Assembly: GCA_020137815.1 (NCBI GenBank)
Contig: CM035352.1
Span: 2,108,001 to 2,172,000, forward strand
Direction of reading: 5' to 3'
DNA from: Hormiphora californensis
Taxonomy: Eukaryota; Animalia; Ctenophora
DNA length: 64,000 nucleotides
Shown piece by piece: positions 1,988 to 61,430 of this stretch. The notes beneath the pieces were generated by a model that worked only from the letters and a program-made list of their open reading frames with translations, had not been told where the DNA came from and searched no databases. Made by a program: the position numbers and the translations under genes. Numbering within the stretch: position 1 is the stretch's first letter; every line of letters starts with the position of its first letter.

Positions 1988-4900
1988 ATGATTAGGAGAC
2001 TTGTGGTTTTCCTCTACTGTTTGTTGGGTACCTCAGGTAAATTATTTTTTTGTTATAGTTCTTTCAAATGCGATTCATACTAACAGTCTGGAACTGCTAG
2101 CCGGGTCTGGGACATTTGTCTAGAACTGTTAGCCGGGTCTGGGACACTTGTCTGGAACTGTTAGCCGGGTCTGGGACACTTGCCTGGAACTGTTAGCTGG
2201 GTCTGGGACACTTGTCTGGAACTGTTAGCCGGGTCTGGGACACTTGCCTGAGTCTGGGACACTTGTCTGGAACTGTTAACCGGGTCTGGGACACTAGTCT
2301 GGAACTGTTAGCCGGGTCTGGGACACTTGTCTGGAACTGTTAGCCGGGTCTGGGACACTTGCCTGAGTCTGGGACACTTGTCTGGAACTGTTAACCGGGT
2401 CTGGGACACTAGTCTGGAACTGTTAGCCGGGTCTGGGACACTTGTCTGGAACTGTTAGCCGGGTCTGGGACACTTGCCTGGAACTGTTAGCTGGGTCTGG
2501 GACACTTGTCTGGAACTGTTAGCCGGGTCTGGGACACTTGCCTGGAACTGTTAGCTGGGTCTGGGACACTTGCCTGGAACTGTTAGCCGGGTCTGGGACA
2601 CTTGCCTGGAACTGTTAGCTGGGTCTGGGACACTTGTCTGGAACTGTTAGCCGGGTCTGGGACACTTGCCTGAGTCTGGGACACTTGTCTGGAACTGTTA
2701 ACCGGGTCTGGGACACTAGTCTGGAACTGTTAGCCGGGTCTGGGACACTTGTCTGGAACTGTTAGCCGGGTCTGGGACACTTGCCTGAGTCTGGGACACT
2801 TGTCTGGAACTGTTAACCGGGTCTGGGACACTAGTCTGGAACTGTTAGCCGGGTCTGGGACACTTGTCTGGAACTGTTAGCCGGGTCTGGGACACTTGCC
2901 TGGAACTGTTAGCTGGGTCTGGGACACTTGTCTGGAACTGTTAGCCGGGTCTGGGACACTTGCCTGGAACTGTTAGCTGGGTCTGGGACACTTGCCTGGA
3001 ACTGTTAGCTGGGTCTGGGACACTTGTCTGGAACTGCTAGCTGGGTCTGGGACACTTGTCTGGAACTGTTAGCCGGGTCTGGGACACTTGTCTGGAACTG
3101 TTAGCTGGGTCTGGGACACTTGTCTGGAACTGTTAGCTGGGTCTGGGACACTTGTCTGGAACTGCTAGCTGGGTCTGGGACACTTGTCTGGAACTGTTAG
3201 CCGGGTCTGGGACACTTGTCTGGAACTGTTAGCTGGGTCTGGGACACTTGTCTGGAACTGTTAGCTGGGTCTGGGACACTTGTCTGGAACTGCTAGCTGG
3301 GTCTGGGACACTAGTCTGGAACTGTTAGCCGGGTCTGGGACACTTGTCTGGAACTGTTAGCTGGGTCTGGGACTCTAGTCTGAAACTGTAATTAATAATT
3401 ACTTACATGATTACTAATTATAGAACACAGTAACACACATTTTTTAAATTCTACAGCCACGTTAGTGTTTTCCGATGGATCTCAGGACATCACAAATCAA
3501 TTCCTATTTACAAGTGGAGTAACCGATATCACCTTTGGTTGTTCTTATAGTTATACTGTGGATGATCCCAATGTTTTAACTTTAACATGGACGGATAACA
3601 ATGGTAAGTGTCATCCAGATTTATCTGTTATAGAGAACATATAAATTCTCGTTCCGAAAAAGTTGGTACCTCATAACGTGTGAACTGTGAGGGCTCGCCA
3701 AGTGTAACTAATCTTCTCTGGTCGTGTGTTGGACCCTGTTTGTAGTACCTACTACCCAATAGATCCTGCGCCGTGTACGTTGTTCTGAAAACTAACTAGT
3801 ATGTAGTTTCTTTACCTTCCTGCAGGTGATCCTGTGACTGCCAGTATAGACAGTTCAGAAGCAGGCATAATCAAACTCCCACTTGAAGTTAACAAGGCTT
3901 CAATGAAAGCACCTTACACATGTAAAATGATTAATACAGCCACATCGGAAGGGGAAGTAGCTACTCTGAATATTTATCAAGTCACAGGTTAGCCAAAACT
4001 GTTGTTACTTGCTCTGCAACTGTGCAGTATGTAGTGATTTTAATTATTATAGTAGTCCCTATTAATTAGAGTTTAGCCTAATTGATCCCATCTTTCTGAT
4101 GATTTATTTCATTACTCATTAGAATCGACATGTGTTATCTAAATTGGCTTATTGCGTGGCTAGATCGATTTGAAGATAAAGATTTTCCAGTTTTTCACCT
4201 GTCTTGCTCAACCCTGTCTCACTGCGTTGAAAAATGAAATAAGGGCTTGAACAAAACAATTTATCACACGATTTAAACAAATAATTGCTAACATATTATA
4301 ATTTATGTAATAGCTAGGCATAGCAGGGCATAGCTAATACTTATTATACCTTTCAGAATCTACTAATGATAAACACACGGTAGCAGAATTTAGTGCCGAG
4401 TCCGCGACACCACTGGTCCTTTCTGTTACCACAGATAAACCTGCTTTAGCTGATGATGATGTCACGGTGTCATGTACATCTTCAAAAACAGAAGTAAGTA
4501 AACCAGTTTATAACAAACACATTATACAAATTCACCAAAGCTTAACCTCACTTGTATTACAGGTTTCTGTATCAGAAGGGAGTGCAACTGTAACATATGA
4601 TAACGCGGGTGCAGAAGTCGGTAGTCACACTTCTGCAACATGTACATTTACCTTCTTCAGTCACTACACTGTTGACGTAGAATCTGCTGTCACCATCATC
4701 GGCGAAGGCGGTGAGTAATATGCAGGAACTGACCGAATCAGGAAATACTGGTCCCTCATTGGCTGACAACCAGTCACGTGACCTAAATAACGAGTTCTTA
4801 TTGGTTGTTTACTTGTGTCGGTCGGTTCCTGATCAATATGATTACTCAGAAACGTCGTTGGTCCAAGTTATGATCGATGGAAATGAGATGGATGGGAATT

Positions 4901-7900
4901 CAGCAGAGTTTATGTTTACTACGAGTGATATGGATGCAGTGGAGCTGGAATGTGGTTATTATTCCTTGGCCGCGATAACAGATGAACAAAAGGCTCAGTG
5001 GAGAGATAGTGAAGGTAAGACAAAGAAATAATCAAAGTTGTAGATTACATGTATTCAATTTGGCAATAAATATAAATAGATTGTTTATACTATAATTATT
5101 ATACAGGAAAAGAAAGTTGTTCATTAATCAACCAATATTATTATTTAACTGTAATAACGTATTAATTTCCCTATTAGAAACCATAGTGGCAGGTGTCGAA
5201 AAAGACTCTGAGTTCGTGTCAGTTAATACGATAACGATTGATCCTGCAAATGTAAAATCTCCATACACCTGCAAAGCTAAAACTGTTTCCGTCTACAAAG
5301 TGACGAGTAAGTAAGAATACAACTAAAGGGAACTGTAACACTTTTACTACAGCTCCCGAGATACTGAATGAGCTGTTAGCCAAAACTGTTGTTACTTGCT
5401 CTGCAACTGTGTAGTAGTGATTTTAGCTATATGTAGTAGCCCCTATTAATTAGAGTTTGGCCTAATTGATCCCATCTTTCTGATGATTTATTTCATTACT
5501 CATTAGAAACTACAAGTGTTATCTAAATTGGCTTATTGCGTGGCTAGATCGATTTGAAGATAAAGATTTTCCAGTTAATCAACTGTCTTGCTCAACCCTG
5601 TCTCACTGCGTTGAAAAATGAAAAGGGCTTGAACAAAACAATTTATGACATGGTGTAAACTGTAAACAAACAATTGCTAATATATTATAATTTATGTAAT
5701 AGCTAGGCATAGCTGGGCATAGCTAATACTTATTATACCTTTCAGAATCTACTTATGGTAAACATACGGTAGCAGAATTTAGTGCCGAGTCCGCGACACC
5801 ACTGGTCCTTTCTGTTACCACAGATAAATCTGATTTAGTTGAAGCTGATGTTACGGTGTCATGTGCAACTTCAAAAACGGTAGGAAGTAAACCAGTTTAT
5901 AACAAACACATTATACAAATTAAAAACAACAGAAGTTTTTAAGGTCTTTACAATTGTTTCATGATGCCCCACGAGGAGGCACCAATCATCAGTATAACAA
6001 ACACATTATAAATTCACTAAAGCTTAACCTCACTTGTATTACAGGTTTCTGTATCAGAAGGGAGTGCAACTGTAACATATGATAACGCGGGTGCGGAAGT
6101 CGGTAGTCACACTTCTGCAACATGTACATTTACCTTCTTCAGTCACTACACTGTTGACGTAGAATCTGCTGTCACCATCATCGGCGAAGGCGGTGAGTAA
6201 TATGCAGGAACTGACCGAATCAGGAAATACTGGTCCCTCATTGGCTGACAACCAGTCACGTGATCTAAATAACGAGTTCTGATTGGTTGTTTACTTGTGT
6301 CGGTCGATTTCTAATCAATATGATAACTCAGATACGTCGTTGGTCCAAGTTATGATCGATGGAAATGAGATGGATGGGAATTCAGCAAGGTTTATGTTTA
6401 CTACGAGTGATATGAATGCAGTGGACCTGGAATGTGGTTATTATTCCTTGGCCGCGATAACAGATGAACAAAAGGCTCAGTGGAGAGATAGTGACGGTAA
6501 ATTAACTAAGAAATAACCAAAGTTGTAGATTACATGTATTCAATTTGGCAATAAATATGAATTGATTGTTTATACTATTATTATACAGTAAAATAATATT
6601 GTTCATTAATCAACCAACATTATTATTTAACTGTAATACCGTATTAATTTCCCTATTAGAAGCCATAGTGGCAGGTGACCCCAATGACTCTGAGTTCGTG
6701 TCAGTTAATACGATAACGATTGATCCTACAAATGATGTAATAAAATCTCCATACACCTGCAAAGCTAAAACTGTTTCCGTCTACAAAGTGACGAGTAAGT
6801 AAGAATACATGCAACTATAGGGAACTGTAAGACTTTTACTACAGCTCCCGAGATACCGAATGAGCTGTCTAACCTTTCACCAGATTCATTTTAACAGAAC
6901 AGAATTAAGTTGATTATGCTACCAATTATCATTGATATATCATTGATACGTCCCATGACAGGTGCCGAAGAAGGTGAAACACAGGTTATTGTGCTAGGTC
7001 AGCAACCCGCCAAAGCTACACACACTGTCATCACCACCGACACAGATATGATCGATGGTGATGTGACCGTTTCTTGTACAGATGATACCGGCAATTCGGT
7101 ATGATACAAATTTCAATAATAACATATATATAATTATATAGAATATTAGGTTTATGTTCCAAGTTATAATCATAATATTAGAGTAGGACGTGTGATTGTT
7201 TGTGTGTTTTAAAATTGTGTAGTAGTTACTAGTTAGCTATATTGACTATCTTGAGTTGCCTTTCTCGTCACTCTGTCACTCCAGACAAAAGGGTCAGAAC
7301 ACCCCCTTCCCTATATATAATACCGGCTGTGGGCCTCAATTCATATCTACAACGTCCTTCATTCTTACAGGCGACTATAACTGAGGTAACTGTAGCTTCT
7401 GGTGAGGTATCAGTAACAGTTGCTCCTCCCCAAACAACCGGAGATACGCATTTCGAATGTGTCTTCACCTTTTTTGGAGAATACACACAGTCAGTGACTA
7501 CAACATTGACCATGATTGAATGTAAGTGGGTCATTAAATAACAATAAATATAATATACATATATAACTATGTATAAATATAACTATGTATAGTCTAGTTT
7601 TGAGAAATCAGTAGGAGATTCAGCGTGTCCCTGTAAATTATAATCCTCAACACACTTAACTGCAGAGTGCAGTCCGCAATGTTTTCTGCGTATCAGTGTA
7701 ACAACACCAGTACCTGCACTGATCACGTTCTATTTCCAGATAAGATATCCCATTCACCGGACATTCTCATGACTGGGCTGCCTATTACATTTACCTGTAC
7801 GTGTAAGGGCACGGAGGTTGGTTGTGGAACACTAGAACTAACTGACAATGTGGAAACTGACTCAGAGTGGACTTCTGATGCATGGGATGAGGACACAGAC

Positions 7901-10900
7901 AGCATTACAGGAACGGGCACAATTACTTTTGGTGAAAAAGGGCTAAAGAAGGAGTTTGCTTGTGGATCTGATACCCAGACAGAAAGTTCTTACGCTTCGT
8001 TGGAGCTTGATGTTGTGGGTAAGTTATTGATTCTTACCGCGGCTCCAAACTCATTTCAGTTCCCTTATTCCTTTGGATAAAGTGTTTTATTAACTGTTAC
8101 CCTCCTCCAAGATGTTACACTCGGTGTAGTTGGGTCTCAGTCTGCCACCAAGTACATAGCAAAAGGCCAAGATGTCTCAGTATCATGGACGATTGGACCA
8201 TTTTCTACGACTCAAACTGACGGTCCGGCGGAAGGTGATGTTACCATGGGATCAACCACTGGAGGAGTTGTAAGATCATTCACAACTAACGACATCGTGT
8301 ACACTGCAAAAATTAATAGTAGTGAGGCCAAGGAGAATCTACCTCTCACTTTTAAATTCAATGAAGGAACGGTATATGCGGGGAGGACTGTTGACGCAAA
8401 GGAAGTGGATGTTATTGGTAAGTTGTGGGATAAATGTAGAGAGGGTCCACCCCACTGCCAATGTTTTGGTATCGATAATCAGTGAAATGGACTTTGGCAA
8501 ACCTGCATAGTGCATTATAATGATGCTGTTTCAACCAACTTCAGCAATGATAATTGTGTATCATATACTAACATGTTAGTATGATACACAATTATTATTT
8601 CTACGAACGGCTAATGAAGCAAAGCTAACCGGAATACTCCTTCATCAAAACTAGGTTTAACGACGTCTCTGGCTGCAGCATATATTCTTGACGAATCATT
8701 AGGATGTAAAATTGGAAATGTGACCATTACAGCTCTCACTGCTCAAAGCCCACCAAAAATTACTTGGGATGATAAGGTGAGTACGTATGAGATAGATATG
8801 TCTGCATACTGTTAAGTGCTTATTCTAACTAATATAAGTGTGATGCCTTTGTTTATCTGGTGAATATGCTGAACAAATGATGATGATGATATGGAGCTTA
8901 TAACAAAGTAAAACAAGTTGTTTTAGTTTGTATCTAACCTGTGATTTTGAACTTTGTTCCAGGGTGTGTCAAGAACAAGAGCTATGGATAAGGATGGAGA
9001 CATTTATAGAAGCAATGAAATAGACTTCACATGCGCTGTCGATCTTTCTGGAATAGTGAAGTATAATGGTGATAAAGTTGCGAGTGGCTTTGAGCTAGCA
9101 ATATCAACTTCTGTCCAAAGTATGTGAAAATCCTCATTTAAGTTGTCTGAGAAACATGCTAGATAGATTCTTAGATATTTTTATATAGTGTTTCTTATTT
9201 GTAGTGTTATTGTAATCCTTAGTGCAAAAGAGGTGATACTTGATCCAGATTACTGCAGATTATTACTCCACGTAATTAAATGATATCACTATATAACATA
9301 CACATTGTATATTACATGTTAATAATACAATGCTCTTATAGGAACGAACGTGTTTGGAACTGCAACCCGATTCATCGAGAACAGTAATGTCAACGAAAAA
9401 CATTACGGTTTTACTCTTACCACAGCGACCACTTTAACCATTGCGAATAGCTGTAACGGAGGCACAGTCAGCTCCGATAACCAAAGTGTTGCAATTGCGT
9501 CAACTGATGACTTTACTAATAACAGGACCTGTAAGATAGAACTGTACGATGACAGTACCCTTGAGGCTGACGATCATTATACATACACATTTGCACGTGA
9601 TGGTAGGTACTTAGTTAATAGCATAGACTAAAATAACTATATAGCATAGGCTATTTTCGATTTCGGTTTCAACTTTTTTCCCTCTGTTTTTTAATCTGTT
9701 TAATGTTTTAGTGCTTGAGCTGGAATCTACTAAGGACACTATTTTTGTGGGCGAAGAGGCGATATCACAGGATTTGAAGTGTAAACTGACAGGACCTAAA
9801 TCTGTGGCTGAGTTGAATGCCGCTTACGAACCAAATCCCTGGACTTTCGCATTGGGTGAGTTAGTTTGAGCTGTTTTACTTGTTTATAAACTTCGTAGTC
9901 AATTAATCAGTAATCTACATTGTCGGGCGTAGGTGTTGTGGGCCTTGTAACCGGTAAAATACATTGTACATAACATGATGTTTGATTGCAGATGGAATTG
10001 CAGATCAAAGTACTGCTACAATTGGAGATGTTACTACATACACCGTCACCGCCACTGATCCTGGGACGTATACTTGTCTAGTGAAGTCTAAAGATGGAAC
10101 GGGAGAAGAGGCCTCCGTTTCAACTACTATATACCAAGTGACATCAGGTAACATATCAATTAAACATGTGGAAACTTTTAGCGCTTGGGGGCTTTTACGA
10201 TTCCCTGTTGTCTCTACCTCGCCGCTGCTACCTTTTTACCTAGCAACAGAAACTGTTGCCTAGCAACGTATGTTCGATATTAATAACATTATTGTTTAGT
10301 AGCAGTAACAGATACATCGTACATTGGAATATTTGCCACTGTATTCCACACTCCACAAACACGAATTCATTCCTTATAGTTGCTAATGAGACGGTGTATC
10401 TAGACGATACTATCACACAGAAAAGCCTGGACTGTTCTAAATCTTATACTGTTAATCCTGATAAATCTGATTTGGTTCCCACTTCTTATTCGTGGACTAA
10501 GAATGACAAAGCCGAAGTTTTTGATACGACGGTAAACAAGCAAGCTGCAAGTTGTTGAGTTAATCTCAGTGAAAATTAGTTTGTTAGAACTACGTAATTT
10601 ATATATTTGCTCCGATCCCAACACTCTCTTCCCAGGAATCGATAACAATAGCACCTGCGAATGACGACAAATATGTCTGCACAATGAAATTCGATGATAA
10701 TGTTTCAGTATCCCATAAATTTACAATCCTTGTCACTATTCCTAGTAAGTTATTTTTGGGTTAGTTAGCCAAACGCTGATCAAACTACCTACCGCGTGGG
10801 TATCATTAGGGACACTTATACAAAGTACAAGAAATCCAACGTGTACACACCATCCGATAAATATATCTACTAACTCCAGTTTTTATGTTTTTATTTTCGG

Positions 10901-13900
10901 TTTCCCATCAAATAGTAGATACCTATGGTGCGTTGGATTTCTTGTAGTGTTCCTAAACACACAAGTAAAATTTAGAATTCTAAACCCAACCTCCCACTAT
11001 AATAATATACCCTACAAGAGATGGAGAGCATCACATTTTATTATTTATCATTATTTATTTATTTTAGTAGTTCTGGACTACAAAATAACTATTAACTATT
11101 GCAGAAATTGAGGTCACGCCAGCTGAAGCTAAATGTTATCAAGGAACAGATACAAAAATGACAATTAAAGTAACAGGAAAAGATCCAACATCATCAGTAG
11201 TTGTGTCAATTACTTCTGACAAACAAGGTAAAATTGTACTTTTTTACGTAGGTCTACTTGAGTGAGAACGTATATGTGTTATGTTGACTATTGATTATTG
11301 CTTTAGATTCAGACTTTCCGTTTGACGACGTCGATTTGACATACGACACGAAAGAAGCGGCGTTTATCGGAACAACAGATATTGTCCTGGTCCCTAATGA
11401 TGATACTTATGATGATTATAATTTAAAGTTTTTCATTAAGGGCCAAGAAGATAAAGTATCCAAAACCGTTCCGTTTGATGTAGCTGAATGTAAGTACTAA
11501 TTGGGTTAGGGAACGTGATCTTGGGTGAGAGAGTCAAGGAGTACTTTATATACTATGTATACATATTTTATATATTGTATTACTTCAACAGTCTTTCCAG
11601 TAATTTAACTTTTACCACAAAGCTATTTTCAGGGGTAACACGTCCCGATAACGCGGTATATAACTACAAAGACGCAACGATGGACTTGGTTTACACTATT
11701 CAGCAAATAGATAATATAGAGCCTAGCATTATAATTTCAGATTCACCATCTACTACCAATAAAATGACATGTTCTGTTGATAAAAACTGTACATATACTC
11801 ATAAAATTACGAAGTTCAAAGACGATACTATATCTGTTAACATTACTTCAACTGAAGGGGATGTTAAATACTTGGTCAGCAGATCCACAAAAACTATTAC
11901 TCGGGGTAAGTATAGCTGGTAAAAACATAATACTATTTAATTGTCATTCGCGTTATTATAATGTAGAAATTAGTGTTGTAAGATTAAGGGGAAGTTTGTC
12001 GAGGCTTCCTAATCACTAATCACTATTCCAGCGTTGGTCGTGGAAAATCCATTCTTCCTTGCGGAGGGAGCTGTAGCACAATTATCTTGTAAAATGACCG
12101 CAGAATACGTATGTATTAATAATGTATTAATTAATATCAAAATTGAAAACACTAATATGTATGTAGTACATATCTTTTCTTGAGAGAGCGGGGGGGCACT
12201 CCCGTAATAGCTAATCTTTGACACTGAGAACGCTCAGCTGGTGTACTTGAATTTTAATGCGCTCTTGCGCTAACATGTCAAATGAAATAAAGTAAATAAC
12301 GGGTGACAACTAAAAATCTGGACAATTTTCTGTGAGCTCTAGCGCCGTCCCCGTTTGAGATACAGCTTCAGGACAATGATAGAACGATTTTTCAGACAAT
12401 TTTGAATCAGAATAACATAACGGGAAAGACTAAAAATTTCATTTTCATTGCCATATCGCATCATTTCCTCTTGGCCCACCAAAGCATGTAGTACGGAGAT
12501 TTGAGATTTCTATGTGATCAGAAACAAACTTCCCGATGAAATAGAATTCTCAAAATTGGAAGTCTGGTAGTTCATGCCATAACCAACATAACTGCCAAGT
12601 TTCAACATTCTAGCTCATCAGGAAGTTGGTTTTCCACGTCATAAATGTTTCGAGAGATCGTCAAAATGGCGATTTCTCAAATTACCTGTAAACTACGATT
12701 TGAAAGGTTTGTTACAGATGATTCTGTGATCAGAATTGAGATTAACGGAGTGTGAAACAAAGTTAATTTCGTTCAAAATTGTCTGAAAAATCATTCTATC
12801 GCTGCCCCGAAGCTGTATCTCAAAAAGAACAGGCGCTAGAGGTGCTAGAAAAGTGTGTAAATTTCACGTAATACATGCTTTGGTGGGGCAAGAGGAAATG
12901 ATGCGATATTGCAATGAAAATGAACTTTTAAGTCTATCCCGTTGTGTTATTCTGATTCAAAATTGTCTGAAAAATCGTTCTATCACTGTCTTGAAGCTGT
13001 ATCTCAAACGGGGACGGCGCTAGAGCTCACAGAAAATTGTCCAGATTTTTATTTGTCACCCGTTAAAATATCCCAAAAAGGTTTCGGATCCAGATCTAAA
13101 CATGCTAAAGTGGAACGTAACACCGGAGCTTGAGAATATGGTACAAAAGCTTGATCTGGTTTTCGATAGAGATGATAAGGTGTGGCTGGCTATTCTAAAT
13201 GGTAAGGTTTACTCATAAATGAGCCATTAAGTTTTATATAGCATTAAAAATTATTTCAGGTATTTGTTATAGGTATAGGTATATCAATACATGTATCACC
13301 TGCTGATTGAATTCCAACAATTATTACAGTGACTGTGACCTCTACGACTACGGCTGATAAGATCAACGAACTATCTTGCTCCAGTGTTACCTACAATGAT
13401 TTAGACGCTCAAAATCCTACTGTCGGTCAAATAATAAGTAAGTGCTAATGATAGTAACAACAAAAGTACAAAAGAAACAGAGAGATTGTTACCTTTACTA
13501 TTGAGAGAGTTGGGCCACCACATAACACTTCCTCAGCATTACCTACGATTAAACTCTCACTGAGTAACGTGGACGAGGATGGACAAGTGATCGTGAATTG
13601 TATATTCAACGAAGTAACAACACCCGGTGAATTCAGTGGAAAACTGGTACACCCAGGCACATCTCAATGGACGGAGAAGGAAGTAACTAATACAGATTTT
13701 GAAGAAATAAAGTACATCAACTCTGCCATTCACTACTCTGATGCGGGCTCCTACAGTTGTGAGGGTTCCTACAATCACACTGGCCATGACATTGTCATTA
13801 TCAAATCGGAGATGAAAACTCTCACTGTCAATGGTTTGTTATATTATTGTTACTTTCCAACATTGTTACTTATACATATAAGAACGAAGATCAGATATCG

Positions 13901-16900
13901 TATACTTTCCTCATTTAGCGTTGCTTATTCCACTTAATTTAATTTATATTAATCTATGTTTTGTTTCCAGCACACGCCCAGACAAACTCCTACTTCGAAG
14001 AGGGTCAGGATATAACAATGACAATTCAGTTCTCGGATAATATCAAATCACCTGTTGAATGGTAAGCATCGTGTTCTGCTATAACTGGACTGCTCGGGTG
14101 AAAGGGTAGCATGTAGTCAGACCCCGATTTACCGGGGTGAAAGCACCTAGGCTGCCACACTAGGGACTCAGAAATTAGCAGTTAAAATACCGGGGTGTAC
14201 TGTAAATCAAGGCCTGATTTACCGGGGTGTACTGTAAATCAGGGCCCGATTTACCGGGGTGTACTATAAATCAGGGCCTGATTTACCGGGGTGTACTGTA
14301 AATCAGGGCCCGATTTACCGGGGTGTACTATAAATCAGGGCCCGATTTACCGGGGTGTACTGTAAATCAGGGCCCGATTATTAATTTCTGGCTCCATCAG
14401 GTATGATGAAGAGGATGGTATAACGTATGAAGCCACTTCTAGCGCTAAACGAGCTGCAGATGATTGGAAAATAGTAGCAGAATTTAGTGGGAAAACCACA
14501 ACTCTGACTGCGCCCAAAGGTAAACACTGAACGTGATGTAATACATGTATTATATACATATACTACTATAACGAGAATACCCATCTAATCAATTATATTC
14601 TTAGTTAAATAGTGTATAAGAAATCACCAGATTGTAACCCTACGGCCTATAACAGTAACACCTTAGACTAAGGTGTTACTGTTATAGGCCGTAGGGTTAC
14701 AATCTGGTGATTAGTACCACTATAAAACACAGTAGGTACTGCTAGAGGAATATTGATACAACAGTTTTTATCACCCAGGATCAACCATAAAGAGCACTCG
14801 GACATTCAAAATCTCTGCAATGGTAGAACTAGGCACTGGTCAGGTGAAAAGGTTCGAGCGTAGAGCTCTTGATATTTACTGTAAGTAAGCAATTTATCGA
14901 GGGTTATGTGTGCTTTTCATATTTGGGTGGCATGTTTCACGTGTTGCCCAAATATGGTATGTCATGCCCTAATATGGCTTGTCACGTGTTTTAACATTTT
15001 TTAACTGCTGCCGTTATTGTTAACTTTTGTTGCCCAACAGCGGTTAAGACTGTGAGCGCCCTGATTGACAGCGATGCTGGTGTTACCAAAGGACGTGGTA
15101 TAGTGGAGTTCGATGGACTTCCCAACTTTCATGGGCTTCCCTCTGTTAAGACTAACGGAGAGCTCTCTGTCGATTTCGACTCAAAGTACGTACACTGTGT
15201 GATAGGGAATCAAATTAAAATTGAAGCATTGTGTACTTTACACTTAATCGATTCTAGGTGATTGCAAATTACTAATCGACGGATGTATTTCAGTAACCAT
15301 GACAACAACGTGTTCATATTCGTTACCCCTACTGAAGCAATTAAAACTACAACATCGGTTGACGTGGTTGTACAGTTTGGAGATGGTGAAAGCAACACCC
15401 AATCATTAACGTTTGGGGGAGCAAGTAAGTCTCAATTACATTTTCAAATTATTTCCATCATATGTACCAAGCAACATCTCCTGCACACCTTTTACTATAA
15501 CATCAACTACGATCCCTGGTGTTATCTCTATCGATCCCTGGTATTATCTCTATCGATCTCTGGTGTTATCTCTATCGATCTCTGGTGTTATCTCTATCGA
15601 TCCCTGGTATTATCTCTATCGATCCCTGGTGTTATCTCTACCGATCTCTGGTGTTATCTCTATCGATCCCTGGTATTATCTCTACCGAATCCTGGTGTTA
15701 TCTCTACCCAATCCTGGTATTATCTCTATCGATCTCTGGTGTTATCTCTATCGATCCCTGGTATTATCTCTATCGATCCCTGGTGTTATCTCTACCGATC
15801 TCTGGTGTTATCTCTATCGATCCCTGGTATTATCTCTATCGATCTCTGGTGTTATCTCTATCGATCCCTGGTATTATCTCTATCGATCTCTGGTGTTATC
15901 TCTATCGATCCCTGGTGTTATCTCTACCAATCCCTGGTATTATCTCTATCGATCCCTGGTGTTATCTCTACCGATACCTGGTATCATTTCTTCTCTTTTC
16001 AGGCATCGTGACCGATCCCGCTCTAGACGTAGAATCGAAGCGTGTGGTGTACGATGAGAGCGATGACCGCAGTAAAAATACCAATAAAGCCATATCTTGT
16101 ACCTTTCAAAGTGAAACAACTTTCAACATTATCAGTAAGTAGATATTTGTGTGGTCCACATGCCGTCATATTATTTCTGTGAGGGTTCGGTAGATCAATT
16201 AGGTAGATATCTGTATATTTCTGTGACTTGGTACTACTATTTGATGAAGAACTAATTTGTGTTATAATTTTGATAGCCGAAATCGAAATAAATTTCGATT
16301 TCGGCTATCAAAATTATGACATTTCTGGGCTTTTAATTATGACATCAATTTTGTAGCAGTAGCAGCCTGCACCAGATACATAATTCCCGCTTTGCTAAAA
16401 TAATGGTTGGTGAGAGCGGTAATAAATTTACCTAATTATATCTTCTTTACCTAATTATATCAATTCTTTACTTTAGAAAGCTCCGTTATTGGCAACAAAA
16501 CATCGCTCGACAAGGGTACCGCAGAGCAGATAGATATTCAATGGCATGAAATTGAGATGGATACTAAATCGCTATCATGCTCATTTGAAGTTGAATTCAT
16601 GGGCAATGTCGCATCCTTCTCACGAGAGGTAATTGTAAAAAGAATCACTGCTGCATGCCTCGTTTCCTAACACTGCCAATTGTCAACACAAGGCCATTTT
16701 GGCTTGTTCCTGGATGACATGATATACATAATAGCTGTCTGGCGGCGCCAGAACCCATCAAATTTAATGGGGTCGGCAGTGCCAGACAGAATAATAGCGT
16801 CCATTACCTACGTCTGCTTTTCTTTTTTCCACTTCCAGCTCCAATCGCCGTGAGGGTGTTACCTTTCCTATTGTTACTCACACCTCACACCTTCCTTTCA

Positions 16901-19900
16901 GTTCGAGGTCCTGGAAAAGAAAAGTGAGTTGATGAAGGGATGGATGGGATGGGACACCTGGTCAGGGTGTTGCAGCTATATATGCCTCTCTTTCTCTAGC
17001 TCTACCGTCCTATTTCGGACCTATCATGTTTCAAATTCCTCATCTTTCTTTCTATCCATCTCTCTCATTCTCGCGTCCATGAGGCAAATGTAATCAATGT
17101 AACGATCCTATATGCTAGAAAGGAAATGGAGCTGAGAGAGGTAGAGAGAAACATATGGGTTTAGAACGGAGAGAAAATAGTGGGAGATCTCACAGGGCCG
17201 AGGTGGAAATTGAAAATAGGTCGAGTCAAGTTTCAGGTTCTAAAGCGATTCTGAAAGTGAAAGCTGATAGAAAAAGTAATTTTAGGCACCTAAAATAGAT
17301 CTAGGTGCCTAAAATTAATTTTTCAGTCTCGCTCAATCCTACTCCTAGATGCCACCTGTTTAAAATCTTCCATGAGTGAAACTGGGAAGATTGAATCACA
17401 CATCTAGGGGAGCCACAGGTAATATGGGATACCTAACAACTTTTGGCCATAATTTTTTATCAGATGACAATAAAGTCACGCCGTCTTCATAGATGTGTCT
17501 TATTTGGACCAAGCTAACACATTACCACCAAAACTAACCCAATGAATGCTCCATAACGGAGATCTGGCACTATCCCATATTACCTTGAAAATTTGCAGTG
17601 GAATTTTATTTTGCTAAAATGGGATACCCATTTTTAACGAAAATGGGATATCCCATTTTATCAAAAAATTGGTATCCCATTTTATCAAAATTAATTTTTC
17701 GTCAGTATATGGTAACTTTATTGCACTTTGCTGGGATTAAACTAGTTTGTAATGGTATTCAAGTTTTGTTTATTATTAGTAAGTGGTCTGAAGGCTCCGC
17801 TATAGCCGACAGCCGTGAAATCATGAAAATTTAGAGACAAGCTACCAAATTTCTTCACCAACGGGTCCCTAAAGCCTCAAATAACACTCCTAAGTTCAAC
17901 AGCAGGGGTTAAAGCGTGAACAGGTTCATTTCCTAGCGGGCTGCTACCTGCATATAATTTCAGACAGGTCCACAATTTAGAAATTCTCTAAAAATTGCTA
18001 AAGAATTGGGGACCAAAGAGTTGATCGTTAACACATAATGTGGATAATATTTAGTAATTCCTAAACTAAGAAAGCTACATGGATACCAGAAACCTTTTGG
18101 TGTCTATAATAGAGGATTATATTAATGAGAATTGAATAATTATATCCACACGTGTAGTCGTGTTCTGCAGTTGATACTCGGTGTATTTTTTCAGAATATA
18201 CAAGTTTTTTTCGACTTATAAGCGAAAATAGGCTATAGTACTAATCGTAACTGAGAAATTTGCGTTTAAAATGGCCGTTTAAACAGTCATTTAAAGCCAA
18301 AATTTCATTATCCCATTTTCCCAAAACATGTTTTGGAAAAATGGGATAGTGAAATTTTGGTAAAATGGGGTATCCCATTTCAGTAAAATAAAAGTATCCC
18401 ATTATACCAAAATCATGAGTTTCTATAATTAGCTAATTATAATTAGACACGTTAATTTTGATGCTCTGATCTCTTCAGGTATAGATTATAAATACCTTGC
18501 TCATAAACTAAGCAGATCGATAATTTCTCAAGGAAACAGAGACGTGTGTACCAAATGAAAAAAGTAGCCTGATTTTTTACAATCCGTATTTTAAGATGAC
18601 GAGGGTGTTAGTGTACCATGTAAACATATCCCACCAAGGCTATAAACGGTTTCAGAACTAATCTAAGATCACTAATAAGAGTTATTAACTATTTATGAGC
18701 CTGTAACATGGCCAATCTTTTCAAAACACCGATTTCCCATTTTACCAAATTTCCCATATTACCTGTGGCTCCCCTACTACGTATCAACGGGGGTGCTCAA
18801 ATTGGAATGACATTTAGAAATAAGATCAAATATAATGCCGCAACTTTTCAAATTTTACCTCTCTTATACCTATACTTAGAAACATAGATCAACTTACAGA
18901 AACATAGTAGGTACCTATCCAGCTGTACCCAAGCTGATCAACTATATCAACTATTAATTCCCCTACTAACCACGGTGTTCATTGTTCAGACCATAACTCT
19001 TCATTGTTCATTGTTCAGACCAGAACTCTTCATTGTTCATTGTTCAGACCAGAACTCTTCATCGCTCATTGTTCAGACCATAACTCTTCATTGTTCACTG
19101 TTCAGACCAGAACTCTTCATTGTTCATTGTTCAGACCAGAACTCTTCATTGTTCATTGTTCAGACAATAACTCTTCATTGTTCACTGTTCAGACCATAAC
19201 TCTTCATCGCTCATTGTTCAGACCGTGTAACTCTTCATTGTTCATTGTTCAGACCAGAACTCTTCATTGTTCATTGTTCAGACCAGAACTCTTCATTGTT
19301 CATTGTTCAGACCATAACTCTTCATTGTTCATTGTTCAGACAATAATTCTTCATTGTTCATTGTTCAGACAATAATTCTTCATTGTTCATTGTTCAGACA
19401 ATAACTCTTCATTGTTCATTGTTCAGACCAGAACTCTTCATTGTTCATTGTTCAGACCATAACTCTTCATTGTTCATTGTTCAGACCATAACTCTTCATC
19501 GCTCATTGTTCAGACCATAACTCTTCATTGTTCATTGTTCAGACCAGAACTCTTCATTGTTCATTGTTCAGACCAGAACTCTTCATTGTTCATTGTTCAG
19601 ACCAGAACTCTTCATTGTTCATTGTTCAGACCAGAACTCTTCATTGTTCATTGTTCAGACCATAACTCTTCATTGTTCATTGTTCAGACCAGAACTCTTT
19701 ATTGTTCATTGTTCAGACCATAACTCTTCATTGTTCATTGTTCAGACCATAACTCTTCATTGTTCATTGTCCAGACCATAACTCTTCATTACTCATTGTT
19801 CAGACCATAACTCTTCATTACTCATTGTTCAGACCATAACTCTTCATTGTTCATTGTCCAGACCATAACTCTTCATTACTCATTGTTCAGACCATAACTC

Positions 19901-21558
19901 TTCATTGTTCATTGTTCAGACCATAACTCTTCATTTCCCCTGCAACTGTCAACTAACAACTTCAACTCCAACTACAGGCTCGAAGAACGCAGGAGCAATC
20001 GCAGCTGCAGTGGTGATAGCTATCCTGATCATCGCCATTATTGTAGTGTTCTTTGTATACCGGGCAAGGAAGAGCCGCCGACCAAATAATCAGGTATTAA
20101 ACTATTTACATGATCAATATATGAACAATGTGATTCTCATATTGATTATTAGGTGTTAATATGTATTAACAGAAGTTTACATAAAATAATACTGCCTCTC
20201 CCCGGTTTTATAATCCTAGAGATACTAACATTTCCTAATTCCGTCATTTCAACAGTATCCTACTACTATAGCTAATTGTGATCAGGACAACCGTAATAAC
20301 TAAACGGTTCAATTTGACAACTTGTCGTTTTCATAAAAATTAAATGACATAATAATAGAAAGTTTCAACTTTTCTTCTAGGAATTATCTGATATGACTAT
20401 CGGCTATGAAACAATGAATTCAGATGAAGAATGTTATAGAGTAGGGTGATATACGTGTTTTGGAAATGTGTGTCATTTGTGTGTCAATTCAGCATGGGGT
20501 CCCTTGTGTGTGTTATACATGTGTTCCTGGGCATGCGTAGGAAGAGGTTATTCTTTTGTTCGTATGTGATAAAGTACTAAGTAGTATGGGGAATGGGGAT
20601 GGGAAAATGGAATAGATAATATGGAACTATTTACTTATTCAGAATCAGATTGTCTGGCATGGGAGACTATTAAGAGCACCAGCTGCCCCCCCCCCCCTGT
20701 GTTGTAATTGGGGGTTCGCATTACCGAATCACACCCTTTATAATAAACAGCTATATCAGCTGTTATACAGGAACAGCTATAACAGAGAGAGAGAGCCTAC
20801 TGCTGCAGTCACCACCGATCTCTACACCCTGCATCTGTCTTTCTGTCACGCTCAATCTGTCTCTATAGTTTCTCGTGGGGCACCGGAGCATATTATTTTA
20901 ATCTCTTTCTACTCTCCCCTTCTCTTTATCGATATGATTCCACCTCTATCTCTCTCTCTCTCTCTCTCTCGCTATTCTCCTCCATCACCTCAGGACAAGG
21001 AGTTAGCCGTCCGTGGTGCCGGGGAAATGTTGCCCACAGCCCCAACATCTAATGTCGAGATCCGCCGGGAGACACCGCCGCCCTCTGATCCCTCCTCTGG
21101 GCCTAAAGTCCAAGAGAAAGTGGATGAGGCCTATACATTCCTGGAGAAGGTGCAGAATCGGTTCAAGGGGAGCAACCCGTGCGTGTATTCCCAGTTTTTG
21201 GCGGTACTAGGGGACTACCAGGCGAAGAAGATCACAAAGAGTGCCCTGTTGAATCAAGTTTCAGCCATCCTTCAGGACCATCCAGATCTTAATGGAGAAT
21301 TCGAGAACTTTGTTAGAAAAAAACAAAAAAGGCCAGCGGAAAATGTTTATGTCTCGACAGACACCCAGGTCGGATACCTAGCTGAGATGTCTATTTGTCT
21401 GCAGATTGCTAGCTGTCACTCATCTTCTCAAAATCTCAAATTCACACTTTCTTATTCTCTATCTTTTTTCTCTCTGTCCCTCTGTCTCTCTGTCTCTGTC
21501 TCTCTGTCTCTCTATATATCTCTCTCTCTCTCTCTCCCTCTCTCTCCCTCTCTCTCTC

Positions 21559-21596
<38 letters not shown>

Positions 21597-21908
21597 CTGC
21601 TTACATGTGATTTCAGTAGGGATCCCAGAAGGGTGAAAAATATAAAAAAATGGGGGCATTTTACAATTTACAAGTCATGTGTTTGCCTATTTCGGGATTA
21701 AAATGCCTTGCCTTGCATGTTTCTTAGAATCAGTGGACAGATCTGCTACCCGAAAAGCCCACTTTGTTCATTGTTCTCTTTATGTTTCCTGTTTCCATCC
21801 AGACGTTTAATGTTAAAGAAACACTGTTTTTAATTCAGACTAATCTTCTTTTTTTCACAGGGTGGAGGATCGGTCCATATGAACCAAATGGCTGAGGAGA
21901 GGGCTTAG
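1988..21908 (+). CDS. Multi-exon single-pass type I membrane protein with many Ig-like domains and a cytoplasmic PAH-like domain
   Basis: Exon 1 (1988-2036) is signal peptide-like, MIRRLVVFLYCLLGTS. About 40 GT-AG exons, mostly phase 1, carry Ig motifs (ITFGCSY...LTW, APYTCKM, DPGTYTCLV, DAGSYSCEG). TM exon 19978-20093 reads AGAIAAAVVIAILIIAIIVVFFVY-RARKSRR. Cytoplasmic exon is 20994-21368 and the last exon 21861-21908 reads GGGSVHMNQMAEERA*. Phases around the TM and tail exons are compatible. Confidence 0.8.
2086..3389. repeat. 32-bp minisatellite in intron 1 of the Ig receptor gene
   Basis: Unit gtctggaactgttagccgggtctgggacactt repeated ~40 times, with recurring truncated variants. Confidence 0.95.
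3989..6867 (+). repeat. Recent tandem duplication (~1.4-1.5 kb x2) containing four Ig-gene exons and their introns
   Basis: 3989-5374 and 5375-6867 are near-identical, including introns and an embedded MITE. The ORF track shows duplicated peptides 1482 bp apart. Confidence 0.9.
4723..4831. mobile_element. ~110-bp hAT-like MITE (copy; others at 6205-6312, 41625-41708, 45650-45743, 50636-50752)
   Basis: TIRs caggaac(c/t)gaccga ... tcggtcggttcctg with a shared internal gtcacgtgacctaaataacgagttc. Confidence 0.8.
10807..10955. mobile_element. Short MITE-like inverted repeat
   Basis: tagggacact..acaagaaatccaacg ... cgttggatttcttgtagtgttccta. Confidence 0.55.
12299..13063. mobile_element. Tc1/mariner-like non-autonomous element with long TIRs (family A, copy 1)
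   Basis: TA|acgggtgacaactaaaaatctggacaattttctgtgagctctagcgcc ... ggcgctagagctcacagaaaattgtccagatttttatttgtcacccgt|TA. TIRs exceed 150 bp. A second copy lies at 26280-27042. Confidence 0.9.
14188..14379. repeat. 32-bp tandem repeat related to a MITE terminal motif
   Basis: Unit cccgatttaccggggtgtactgtaaatcaggg, ~6 copies. The same ccccgatttaccgg motif occurs in the MITE at 37916. Confidence 0.85.
14622..14712. repeat. Perfect palindrome, 45-bp arms, 1-nt spacer
   Basis: aatcaccagattgtaaccctacggcctataacagtaacaccttag-a-ctaaggtgttactgttataggccgtagggttacaatctggtgatt. Confidence 0.95.
15511..15985. repeat. 22-bp intronic minisatellite
   Basis: Unit gatccctggtgttatctctatc repeated ~21 times. It explains the three overlapping repetitive ORFs. 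Confidence 0.95.
16264..16317. repeat. Perfect palindrome, 26-bp arms
   Basis: ataattttgatagccgaaatcgaaat-aa-atttcgatttcggctatcaaaattat. Confidence 0.9.
17407..18774. mobile_element. ~1.37-kb non-autonomous DNA transposon
   Basis: TIR ggggagccacaggtaatatggga ... tcccatattacctgtggctcccc, flanked by TA on both sides. Internal aaatgggata(c/t)cccatttt motifs are repeated. No transposase ORF. Confidence 0.8.
18977..19934. repeat. 29-bp intronic minisatellite just upstream of the TM exon
   Basis: Unit cattgttcattgttcagaccagaactctt repeated ~33 times. Confidence 0.95.
20381..20449 (+). CDS. Putative alternative cytoplasmic exon (ELSDMTIGYETMNSDEECYRVG*)
   Basis: Strong acceptor ttttcttctag, in frame (phase 0) with the TM exon. 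It ends at TGA 20447-20449 or could splice at GT 20441. Confidence 0.5.
   Translation, partial: ELSDMTIGYETMNSDEECYRVG
20994..21368 (+). CDS. Cytoplasmic exon encoding a paired amphipathic helix (Sin3 PAH)/harmonin-homology-like domain
   Basis: VDEAYTFLEKVQNRFKGSNPCVYSQFLAVLGDYQAKKITKSALLNQVSAILQDHPDLNGEFENFV fits the PAH pattern A..YL..VK.RF...P.VY..FL.IL..F.....I....V...V..LF..HPDL..EF..F. The exon is 375 nt, phase 0/0, with CAG acceptor and GT donor. Confidence 0.8.
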
Positions 21909-22529
21909 ATAAACACGGGTGGAAAGATAGGTGTATTCATGGAATTAGGGCCTGAATTACTCAAGGGGAAGATTTCCCAAAAAATACCCCGTGCACTTTG
22001 GAAATCGAAATGACGAAACTGAAGACGTTAGGAAATAGGAAGGGGTGTCATGATGCAGGTCTTGAAGGACAATATTTTTCACTTTGGGTGAGATATTTGC
22101 AGGAACGTGGGTCACAAAGCAGTGTGCAGTACTGGACACTGCTTTGTGACCCACGCCAAGTGTGTCAATCGTCGAATACAATGCGAGAATATTAATATCA
22201 AAATCAAATAGCTTTTTTCGCTTATCTATTTTTAATTTACATTTTAGATTTGATTGATTGTTAATTGTTATTTTGCCAGAAATTGACACAGTTGATTTCA
22301 TGAGAGCGATACTCTTTATGTTTTATAGTGTTTAGGAGATGTAGAGGTGAACAGGTGTAGATTTAGAACTATAGATAGTATATTGAGATTTTGAAATGTA
22401 TCAATTTAGATTCAACAGTTTCACCAGATCATATATATGATGTGTTTTGTATTCACCATGGGAGCCATTGGAATTAAAATAGGTGAAGTCACCAGACGGT
22501 AGATCTGGAAGGAATACTGGGAGAGAGAC

Positions 22530-24574: not shown

Positions 24575-29906
<5,332 letters not shown>

Positions 29907-30027
29907 CTGAAAGTGGGGGGTTTGTTAATTCCTCCGGTAAAACAAGACAGTATGATTTGTTATGTTCAATAACCCTTCTTTACACAGTGTAGCTAGGCAG
30001 GTAAGTCGGAAGAACCTGTCCGTTCCT

Positions 30028-30375
30028 CTCATGAGCGCTCATGAGTGTATCATGAGTGTGTCATGAGTGTATCATGAGTGTATCATGAGCGCTCATGAGA
30101 CGTTTTTAGGTGTTTCAACGTCTCATGAGCGCTCATGAGTGTATCATGAGCGTGTCATGAGTGTATCATGAGCGCTCATGAGTGCTCATGAGACCTTGCT
30201 CATGAGCGCTCATGAGACATATGTCTCATCCCATCTCTGTTTCAATGTCTCATGAGCGCTCATGAGACGTTTTGACCTACATGTGCTCATGAGTGTATCA
30301 TGAGACATGTCTCATGAGATATATGTCTCATGAGACGTTAGGGTTTGGGTTAGGGTTGGGTTTACGGTTAGCCTA
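30028..30375. repeat. TCATGA-based palindromic tandem repeat followed by a G-rich telomere-like tract
   Basis: ~12-bp units tcatgagcgc / tcatgagtgta, then gttagggtttgggttagggttggg. Confidence 0.85.
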
Positions 30376-31060
30376 GGTGAAACACCCACCACACTATGCA
30401 CCCAATGTCTACTGTCTGAGCATTCACTATAACAGTAGCTGTAGTCATTGTTTCAGCAATGCGTGCAGTAAAGAAAGTCCGATAAAACTTCTGCTTGCAT
30501 TGTGCAAGAAACCAAGTTCTTTCTTTCTCTTACTCCCTCTCTATCTTTCTATTGCTACTTATCTCTCTCTATCTCTCTATCTCTGTCTCTCTTTATCTAT
30601 CTTTCTCTCCCTCACGGAAAGGTGGCTATCAAGTGTTATATGATATTTATGCAAGTAATATATTTAAGCTGTAATCTCGCTGTCACGTACTGAAGAGCCG
30701 GGTAAGTCGAAGGGGAGGGGGGGGGGGGGGCGTTCTCCAAACGGACCTTTTTCTCACATGAATGTATGTTCAGGAAACAAGATACAGTTAGCTAAACAAT
30801 TAACCTTACAATACAGATGGTACTAGTGTGTATTATAACGGTGCTATGCTTCCGTGACCCTATTGTTCTTTCCCTTTGGGTTTTACAAACCCACTTTCCT
30901 ACTAACCAGCTGACACTACTGCCGTGAAACCCCCCCCAACAACCCCAACTGACTTTGTTAGCCTGTTCCCGCCCTTCCCGGGAGCGTGAGAAACCCAATT
31001 GATTTATACAGTAATTAAGTACCATATCATTTTTTGGCTTACACTTAACAAAACATTGAC

Positions 31061-31837
31061 CTGATTCGGGTGAGGGGGGAGGCACCATTATAGTTGACCA
31101 TCCAGAGCAGGAAACAACACTTGATCAGTGAGTAGAAGGGAATCCAGAAGAGAATGTAGTCGGAGAAAAAATAAAGGACCCCAAAAAGCCTAAAAGGGTT
31201 TTATTATGATTTTAGAGCCCTTTTCTTACTTCATTTTTTTTTTGATTTTTAGGGGTTTTGGTTTGGCAAAACCGGGCGCCGAAACCGCATGTAGTGAGGA
31301 TCCGGGCATTATGGCTGTCTCTCGAAGAGAGTTATCTTGCAATACGAAGCACTGACCGACATGTAAGTTGGTCAGTGACTCTGGTAGTGCGTAGCAGTGT
31401 TGAGCTGCTGACTTTGTTACCTAACACACTCACTCTTGAGGTACTAATATTCAGAATAGAAACAATCCTTGTGTTTTAGTACAAACCTGTAAACAATCCA
31501 GTAGGTAAGCCACTGAGTATCATCTCGTGTGTCTGCTGATTCTACCGCTTTGAAGGACAGGTAAGCGGGGAAGATGAAGCCGATGAAGTCACACAGGAAG
31601 GGAGATCCGTATCCGATAGCGAGCCAAACTGCAGTGAAACCGACAACACCCATAACAAGGTTGACTTTGCTCACCTGGAATTATGAATTACCCGTTAGAG
31701 GGACTGTGGAATAATGATGAAAATAATCAGTCTACCTTTGTCTTGTCAGAGGCTTGCTGCACCACATTGTCAACGCAAGGATATTTCACAAGGAAATCCT
31801 CGATGCTTTTTCGGAAGCGGTCCACTTGGGCTGCCAT
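31061..31837 (-). CDS. REEP5: REEP5/DP1/YOP1 family ER-shaping protein (3' end not resolved)
   Basis: Exon 31837-31736 MAAQVDRFRKSIEDFLVKYPCV..; exon 31674-31487 LCDFIGFIFPAYLSFKAVESADTRDDTQWLTYWIVY; exon ~31185-31061 FFSDYILFWIPFYSLIKCCFLLWM..NGA. This is the TB2/DP1/HVA22 signature. Confidence 0.88.
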
Positions 31838-32536
31838 GGCTGAACAGAGATGTAATTTAACGAAATTGGTAAAGAATATTCATTTTATCGTCTGTAACAA
31901 TTTTAGTCAGGCGAGACTGAGACAAGGCGAGACTGAGATACGGACAGCGGTCAGCGGAGGCTGGAAAGAAGAGAGGCACAGAAGATTTCACAAAACGACA
32001 AATTTGAGACGATGCGACACCACGCCACAAAATTGGGCGCGCGCGTGAATTTGTATCGCGCGCAGCATCGTTAAATGCAATATACGCCGCGCCTTACGTT
32101 TTCAATCCGAAAGAGCGCCGATAAAATGCATGTCAGACTTTTTGAAACTTCAGCTTCGAATATTTTTTTTAAATTTTCAAAATTTCGATTTTTCAAATTT
32201 TGAAATTGGCCTTTGAAATGATCTTTGAAAAGCGCTGCCTTATCCCTGCCTTATCGGGGGGCCAGCGGCGTTTGCCAAACATGATCTTTGAAAAGCGCTG
32301 CCTTATCCCTGCCTTATCGGGGGGCCAGCGGCGTTTGCCAAACATGCTCTGAGCTCTCGGTAGTTGGTCCCTACACCCGCGCCCGGATTGCACCCTACTT
32401 GTGGGGGTGGGGGTTACACCTACGCCACCGACCGCGGCTGAAGTGCTGTTTTGCTCGATCAGACTTTAATTTACTAGTCACTACTTTCTATTTAATAGAG
32501 GAAGGGGTATGAGTTCAGATATTTGGTGAAATCAAA
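31838..32536. promoter_or_regulatory. Short divergent intergenic region (probable bidirectional promoter) with a ~63-bp direct repeat at 32218-32345
   Basis: Head-to-head start codons of REEP (31837, -) and afadin-like (32537, +). CpG-rich. Duplicated atgatctttgaaaagcgctgccttatccctgccttatcgggggccagcggcgtttgccaaac. Confidence 0.5.
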
Positions 32537-33852: not shown

Positions 33853-33934
<82 letters not shown>

Positions 33935-44415: not shown

Positions 44416-44491
<76 letters not shown>

Positions 44492-44994
44492 TCTCTCGCT
44501 CTCTCTCTCTCACTCTCACTCTATCCTTTTTCTCTGGAAACATTTGCGTGTGGGTGTGTGCCGATCATGCGGTACACAACGGCAGAGACAACACACCGCT
44601 TAGTGCAATAGTGCGAACAAGAGAGGGGGGGAGAGAGAGAGAAAGCGAGAGACAGAGAGAGACAGGGTAGAGAGAGGTGAGGACTGCAAAAGGGGAGCCT
44701 CTATAGGGAGAGTGTTTGTGCTAGAGACCAATGTATACCCTGAAATGGAAACAACCATTGAGAAATCGAAGACAATGATGAAAAGATAGACCAAAAATAG
44801 ATAGAGAGAGAGAGATATCCCCCCCCCCCCAGAGAGATGCAGTATATCATGGGCGTTTATCACCAAGCATCAGCTGGTGCAGCAGTTCGGTGTGAAAAGA
44901 TTGTGTTTGTGTGTGTGCAGTCTGTTTTAGCAGTTCATGCCTCTCAAAACAAACAAGTCATACATTCATAGATAACTACACAACTTTCTCTCAA

Positions 44995-45028
<34 letters not shown>

Positions 45029-46470: not shown

Positions 46471-46525
<55 letters not shown>

Positions 46526-54588: not shown

Positions 54589-61430
<6,842 letters not shown>

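Follow-up and report, generated by a model that had tools for sequence, protein, structure and literature searches.

A Sin3-type PAH exon, skipped in the observed transcripts, in the tail region of an Ig-like receptor gene of the ctenophore Hormiphora californensis

In the papers cited here, PAH domains appear as docking sites that belong to nuclear co-repressors, plant NLRs being the chief exception, and the question raised by the locus considered below is whether an animal surface receptor can splice such a domain into its cytoplasmic tail. The locus lies in a window of 64,000 nucleotides of the ctenophore Hormiphora californensis (GenBank assembly GCA_020137815.1, contig CM035352.1, positions 2,108,001 to 2,172,000 of the forward strand), and consists of a long gene for a receptor with immunoglobulin (Ig)-like repeats whose 3' region contains, between the transmembrane exon and the last coding exon, an exon encoding a PAH domain (the PAH exon; Table 1). 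A first-pass annotation of this DNA had read the transmembrane exon as spliced in frame to the PAH exon. The fusion of receptor and PAH domain is plausible and, all forms of it taken together, reasonably probable. The specific reading that we prefer, for which the chances are close to even, is that the PAH exon is an optional cassette giving the receptor an isoform with a membrane-tethered helix-docking module.

The identity of the domain was addressed by profile and sequence searches. The translated PAH exon matches Pfam PF02671 with an E-value of 1e-11 (44.7 bits, cut-off 21.3) and is the sole PAH match among the 1604 six-frame stretches of the window, while no harmonin-homology family was returned from Pfam at E<=10. 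All matches of a PDB sequence search at E<=10 are Sin3 proteins (19/19), and in the Atlas comparison 10/10 best family matches agree, with a top score of 0.90 and a recognition value below the threshold of the tool. Among 1.84 billion representative proteins, 941 match the exon at E<=0.001. The best 150 of these 941 show 26-37% identity, and in each of them at least two stretches are matched; a relative with one PAH domain that scores less than about 60 bits would lie outside this set. Four of the 150 contain a hydrophobic window above a Kyte-Doolittle (KD) value of 1.9, which gives no support for a fusion. A Sin3 protein is defined by three PAH domains together with the HDAC-interaction domain (HID) and Sin3a_C; the window holds one PAH domain, and the PAH exon plus the last exon are too short for an HID.

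The relationship to the individual Sin3 repeats was examined with PAH1, PAH2 and PAH3 profiles derived from 79 proteins with three PAH domains. On these the exon reaches 50.6, 52.2 and 46.8 bits, respectively, which falls short of the weakest true member in each case (93, 75 and 58), and it keeps 16/47, 16/34 and 8/13 of their well-conserved columns, mainly core residues. In a tree of 54 sampled PAH rows plus the query, the latter falls between PAH3 and PAH1+2, and query and PAH3 rows form one side of a 94/92 branch that was not starred. These sub-member scores, together with the position between PAH3 and PAH1+2, suggest that the domain is old or fast-evolving. By sequence it appears most compatible with a diverged PAH3; a PAH1 placement is not rejected (p-AU 0.086).

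At the level of fold, four helices are present in both predicted models, one alignment-free and the other based on a 40-row alignment (pLDDT 80.8), and they lie within the PAH exon alone, without the last exon; harmonin-homology domains (HHDs) have a fifth helix. For the 40-row model, ranks 1-12 of the Foldseek search are all Sin3 PAH (best E 1.8e-3, none reaching 0.001), an agreement that is partly circular because PAH rows were used to build the model. Its TM-scores by query length against the Sin3 PAH1 structures 2cr7, 2czy and 6xaw are 0.70-0.73 (root-mean-square deviation 1.1-2.2). For the alignment-free model, Sin3 PAH occupies ranks 1-4 with a weak best E of 0.093, and a VIA search proved uninformative, returning generic helical bundles (best Z 7.3) and no Sin3 chain among the 50 matches listed. 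The claim of the first-pass annotation that the segment is a Sin3-type PAH and not a harmonin-homology domain is supported by the PF02671 match and by the TM-score of 0.73 for Sin3 PAH against 0.55 for RTEL1 HHD2, which stands at rank 26 for the 40-row model.

The residues of the putative docking surface of the predicted domain are partly kept and partly changed. The beta3 position of the helix 2-3 loop is Ile, Leu or Val in PAH domains (PMC7948954); here it is Ile80, in a column that is Ile in 94% of the 79 PAH1 rows, and core residues, beta3 Ile and helix-2 cleft leucines are all retained. The Mxd1-binding positions of Sin3A are I308, V311, L329, L332 and K315 (PMC6295471), whose equivalents, assigned by spacing on the PAH2 profile, are Tyr47, Leu50, Leu69, Leu72 and Gln54. 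Three of the five are therefore changed (Ile to Tyr, Val to Leu, Lys to Gln), all of them in helix 1, and the cleft is still hydrophobic. Since the helix-1 positions that bind the Sin3-interaction domain (SID) of Mad/Mxd1 are altered, Mad-type partners cannot be assumed.

Whether such a domain could reach the receptor depends on the exon that carries it. The PAH exon contains the complete domain and its linkers, and the Pro-rich linker, the PAH segment, the basic motif RKKQKRP and the tyrosine motif ENVYV are all encoded within it, where the first-pass annotation had placed them. Its 125 codons contain no stop, against 3-6 stops in each of the other five frames. All four combinations of tail exons are in frame, and the PAH exon is of phase 0-0 like the RNA-verified 60-nt exon (the mini exon) located upstream of it. 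Its acceptor scores 9.4 (37 upstream acceptors: 4.8-14.2) and ranks third of the 95 AG sites of the tail region, surpassed only by the two acceptors verified in RNA. Its donor, at 1.7, is weak, and so are the two tail donors verified in RNA (3.0 and 3.3); among the three GT sites that lie between the end of the domain and 21368 it has the highest score. An alternative donor at 21632 (score 4.8, in phase) was discarded, since its use would append CT repeats. The G+C content at third codon positions is 0.58 in the PAH exon and 0.38 in the upstream coding exons. Three RNA differences are listed in coding exons, one in the PAH exon and both others in the transmembrane exon, and all are silent third positions. 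With its strong acceptor, its open frame and its one listed variant silent, the exon looks maintained.

Direct evidence on splicing comes from one of two RNA runs, X1, an oligo-dT metatranscriptome available as assembled contigs, which contains the locus and was compared over 19940-22450; the other, X2, gave no contig there. Contigs of this run join exon 36, a 22-nt micro-exon and the transmembrane exon, whose end in phase 0, claimed earlier, is borne out by the exon model. In one tail form the transmembrane exon is joined straight to the last exon, as indicated by loose ends that match the sequences of the exon ends (one behind 20094, two before 21858); in another it is joined to the mini exon and this to the last exon, spliced on both sides. 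Thus, skipping of the PAH exon is demonstrated in RNA by its joints. The mini exon, which carries a YxxM motif of the kind recognized by PI3K-type SH2 domains, had been overlooked by the first-pass annotation. Contigs reach 22355 in the 3' untranslated region (UTR) downstream of the last exon. A near-perfect 50-nt palindrome lies in this UTR at 22106-22155 and overlaps indels of the RNA contigs.

The PAH exon is itself touched by a single 203-nt contig (21103-21305), wholly inside it and without joint; it aligns without gaps and shows 2 differences, one of which is listed. Because it stops short of both exon ends, this contig could not have revealed an inclusion joint. Its position is a weak indication, since the tail introns have no contig and the exon has one, but 173/984 placements of a 203-nt piece fall inside the exon by chance. 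It is important to remark that in such contig data rare variants are dropped, contig depth cannot rank gene parts and a gap in coverage is no proof of an absent transcript. Being intact and in frame, yet skipped by the observed joints, the PAH exon would be an optional piece of the tail, and we infer that it is sometimes included in the receptor mRNA.

Several results weigh against this inclusion. Both observed tail forms omit the PAH exon, so the receptor as seen in RNA is one without the PAH tail that the first-pass annotation had given it. Of its proposed splice, the in-frame AG/GT possibility stands; the junctions 20093/20994 and 21368/21861 were both absent from run X1, and in this one run the PAH exon is never joined to the transmembrane exon. 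The depth of the PAH-exon contig is low (2.8), and the RNA comes from a single run of a single study, as contigs that carry no strand, start or level, from a library that may contain DNA. The constraint signal on the exon is weak: the PAH contig has 2 differences in 203 nt and the UTR contigs have 17 events in 441 nt (Fisher p 0.047), and with substitutions only the p-value is 0.36. A word-index search with the exon scored 0/177 longer and 0/6 near candidates, a metagenome scan returned two loci that match the Pro-rich linker only, and the protein and metagenome searches gave no orthologous PAH exon on which conservation of the fusion could be tested. To these are added the sub-member profile scores and the three changed cleft positions.

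The PAH exon might instead be a relic or a leaky unselected exon, that is, an old Sin3-derived intron fragment spliced rarely or never, the 203-nt contig then representing pre-mRNA, DNA or a near-identical copy. The skipping joints, the weak donor, the low RNA depth and the lack of relatives in the protein searches all suit this explanation, and a near-identical second copy may exist outside the 64-kb window. In addition, the frame of the exon extends without a stop for 126 codons on its upstream side and for 110 on its downstream side (20616-21698, + strand; Markov resampling p 0.003 and 0.02, respectively, chosen after the fact), in flanks that include CT repeats and are unlike protein, and the upstream AG sites 20643 and 20760 share its phase; as these non-protein-like flanks are open too, open frames come easily here. 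However, an identity of 26-37% to the Sin3-like matches implies time to decay, and yet 125 codons remain without stop or frameshift, the exon has kept its core residues, its phase and its two splice sites, third positions differ in composition from those of the upstream exons and the listed variant is silent. A relic is accordingly judged distinctly unlikely.

The RNA on the PAH exon would fit equally well with a separate short transcript arising from the tail intron and encoding a soluble, PAH-only protein, in which the basic motif would act as nuclear import signal and the product would compete with Sin3. An in-frame ATG with A at -3 precedes the domain and could start a protein with a calculated length of about 129 residues, 114 from the PAH exon and 15 from the last exon, and the contig shows no joint to the transmembrane exon. 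A basic motif after the domain, a position at which none of 451 Sin3-like PAH domains has it, suits a soluble nuclear protein, and PAH-only proteins do exist, many PAH proteins being without other Sin3 domains (PMC7948954). On the other hand, a strong acceptor 33 nt upstream of the ATG, in phase with the transmembrane exon, would be superfluous for a separate first exon, and the joint 21368/21861 that this protein requires is the same one that run X1 lacks. We consider this origin of the RNA rather unlikely.

The basic motif also bears on what an included PAH exon might do. Motifs of the K[KR]x[KR] type occur in 220/1086 125-residue windows of Sin3-like proteins, so by these counts the motif appears unusual directly after a PAH domain (0/451) and common in general. 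If the exon is included, the receptor might undergo ectodomain shedding and the Notch-like intramembrane proteolysis proposed in the first-pass annotation, and the released fragment, with the PAH domain and a putative nuclear localization signal (NLS), would enter the nucleus and compete on chromatin with Sin3 for amphipathic-helix partners. Alternative splicing would then switch an adhesion receptor into a membrane-to-nucleus signal able to capture Sin3-type partners. The type I topology with one transmembrane segment, the intact PAH domain followed by a motif unusual at that place and the cleavage of many type I proteins by gamma-secretase once shed are in agreement with such a course. Nevertheless, it requires three inferred steps (inclusion, shedding and cleavage), no R-x-[KR]-R furin site was found in the 1892 receptor residues, the K[KR]x[KR] type is frequent in the comparable windows, the Mad-type cleft residues are altered and an HDAC-interaction domain is missing. 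Signalling by a cleaved fragment is for these reasons held to be unlikely.

The host of the PAH exon is a predicted receptor whose exon model, from the ATG at 1988 to the end of the transmembrane exon at 20093, comprises 38 exons and 1892 codons with 0 stops, AG/GT ends and introns mostly of phase 1; this structure is a prediction from coordinates in which RNA joints are seen only from exon 36 onward. Predicted lengths are 1907 aa for the direct form, 1927 aa with the mini exon, 2032 aa with the PAH exon and 2052 aa with both. The features of a type I receptor are present: a signal peptide (by eye), one transmembrane segment by hydropathy, the single stretch with KD >1.8 in the 1892-residue frame (windows starting 1854-1868), and basic stop-transfer residues. 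The Ig-repeat ectodomain proposed in the first-pass annotation is supported by pattern, with five C-W-[YF]xC modules and nine C...[YF]xC matches, and only modestly by profile. An Ig family is the best Pfam match in 1/13 ectodomain exon pieces, a weak Ig appears in a second and none in 11, in a scan of single-exon pieces of a protein most of whose domains are split over two exons; the Ig_2 match of piece 13539-13832 (E 5.8e-5, 23.7 bits) is below the cut-off of 27. The best PDB match has an E-value of 0.013, and the protein could be assigned to no specific family of Ig-superfamily receptors. Exon 36 as query found one relative among 6 candidates, 78% identical, with flanks that resemble read-through into introns and no tail visible.

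The ectodomain of this receptor is still expanding through repeat duplication, since exons 4-7 and 8-11 (about 3990-6780, + strand) form a tandem duplication, introns included, of 91.5-94% DNA identity. Intronic tandem repeats were further observed in the receptor gene at about 18970-19935, 15500-15980, 14130-14380 and 2090-3380, one of which stops about 40 nt upstream of the transmembrane exon.

Regarding the rest of the window, which was read from position 1 to 61000, Pfam matches were obtained for 6/7 pieces of neighbouring genes (RA, FHA, PDZ, FERM_C, TB2/DP1, P450), a set in keeping with an animal. At about 27300-31850 (- strand) lie a coiled-coil gene that is lamin-like by eye (the tested piece had no Pfam match) and a TB2/DP1 (REEP) gene. 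They are followed by an afadin-like gene with RA, FHA and PDZ (about 32700-50600, + strand), which has a long exon rich in Arg, Asp and Pro at 38099-39601 and encloses a P450 gene on the opposite strand (35292-36932, -), and by an ERM/merlin-like gene with a FERM_C match (about 54900-61600, - strand). A long poly-T run followed by poly-G at about 56890-57145, with degraded-looking flanks, is probably an assembly or read artefact.

Table 1. Coordinates of the receptor gene and its tail region (positions of the 64,000-nucleotide window)
Feature	Positions	Strand	Remarks
Whole receptor gene	1988..21908	+	38 exons to the end of the transmembrane exon (1892 aa), two optional tail exons (the PAH exon putatively so), last coding exon
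First coding exon, signal-peptide-like N-terminus	1988..2036	+	By-eye judgement
Ectodomain exons 2-36	3457..16628	+	Beta-type modules rich in Thr/Ser/Val/Asp; about six with Ig-type Cys...[YF]xC pair
Micro-exon, 22 nt	16902..16923	+	Before transmembrane exon; RNA loose end at 19978 equals end of exon 36 plus micro-exon
Transmembrane exon	19978..20093	+	Basic stop-transfer residues, phase 0 end; covered by RNA contig
Optional tail exon (mini exon), 60 nt, phase 0-0	20381..20440	+	YxxM motif (YETM); both joints in run X1
PAH exon, 375 nt, phase 0-0, 125 aa	20994..21368	+	AG/GT ends; 203-nt RNA contig inside
In-frame ATG, A at -3	21027..21029	+	Upstream of PAH domain; might initiate a soluble product of about 129 residues
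Four-helix PAH domain (predicted)	21102..21320	+	Exon residues 37-109
Basic motif RKKQKRP, NLS-like (putative)	21315..21335	+	End of helix 4
Tyrosine motif ENVYV (candidate)	21339..21353	+	
Last coding exon	21861..21908	+	15 residues plus stop; frame continues from PAH exon

In the preferred reading, that of an optional cassette, the receptor would have a modular tail, short by default, that could be extended by a YxxM exon and by a PAH exon, both optional. The PAH exon would derive from Sin3 by domain shuffling. When it is included, the cleft between helix 1 and helix 2 would accept a short amphipathic helix from a partner, and this partner would be recruited to the membrane or kept at its inner face, in the manner of harmonin-homology domains in membrane scaffolds. 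Because an HDAC-interaction domain is lacking, such a tail would dock or sequester partners and would exert no gene repression of its own.

Comparison with known systems helps to place this arrangement. With PAH1-3 of Sin3 (PF02671; 2cr7, 2czy, 6xaw, 1g1e, 2ld7) the predicted domain shares the four-helix fold, the core, the beta3 Ile and the helix-2 cleft leucines. It differs in being a single copy of 26-37% identity not assignable to PAH1, PAH2 or PAH3 by score, with a changed helix-1 cleft, no HDAC-interaction domain and a position behind a transmembrane exon. PAH domains are mobile elsewhere: among the integrated domains of maize NLRs, PAH ranks second in frequency (PMC10257044), and it is also integrated in plant WRKY19 (PMC7948954). 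Maize NLRs and Arabidopsis WRKY19 are likewise cases of a Sin3-type PAH moved into a receptor, where the integrated domain is proposed as a possible pathogen target (PMC10257044, PMC7948954); these are, however, soluble intracellular NB-LRR proteins, whereas the present host would be an animal, single-pass, Ig-like protein with the PAH domain on an optional exon. Harmonin-homology domains (harmonin, whirlin, PDZD7, delphilin, CCM2, RTEL1) have a related fold and binding mode, and the one in harmonin engages the tail of cadherin-23 at the membrane (PMC8048344, PMC7948954). Unlike the four helices modelled for the receptor PAH they have a fifth helix, and they belong to soluble proteins; they are known from six protein families, in an account whose relevant portion mentions no transmembrane proteins (PMC8048344). 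PMC7948954 records PAH alongside HID, Sin3-C and plant WRKY19, and immunoglobulin does not occur in its main text.

On the side of the host, Ig-superfamily adhesion receptors of the L1, NCAM, DCC and Dscam classes have alternatively spliced tails with tyrosine motifs. The receptor described here has in common with them the signal peptide, the Ig-like repeats, one transmembrane segment and optional short tail exons with Tyr motifs; to our knowledge, none of these classes carries a folded PAH tail. The resemblance to Notch-type regulated intramembrane proteolysis is one of topology, cleavage of the present receptor being hypothetical. Full-text literature searches, InterPro architectures lying outside them, turned up no protein combining Ig repeats, a transmembrane segment and a PAH domain, in line with the first-pass annotation, which knew of no Ig-superfamily receptor with such a tail.

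Should the PAH exon never be included, the gene would be that of an ordinary, divergent Ig-like receptor whose small tail is alternatively spliced, and the PAH exon would be an orphan. If the preferred reading is true, the splicing of a PAH domain into the tail of an animal surface receptor would represent a new pairing, in which a module of chromatin regulators has moved into adhesion or immune signalling and can be switched on and off by alternative splicing.

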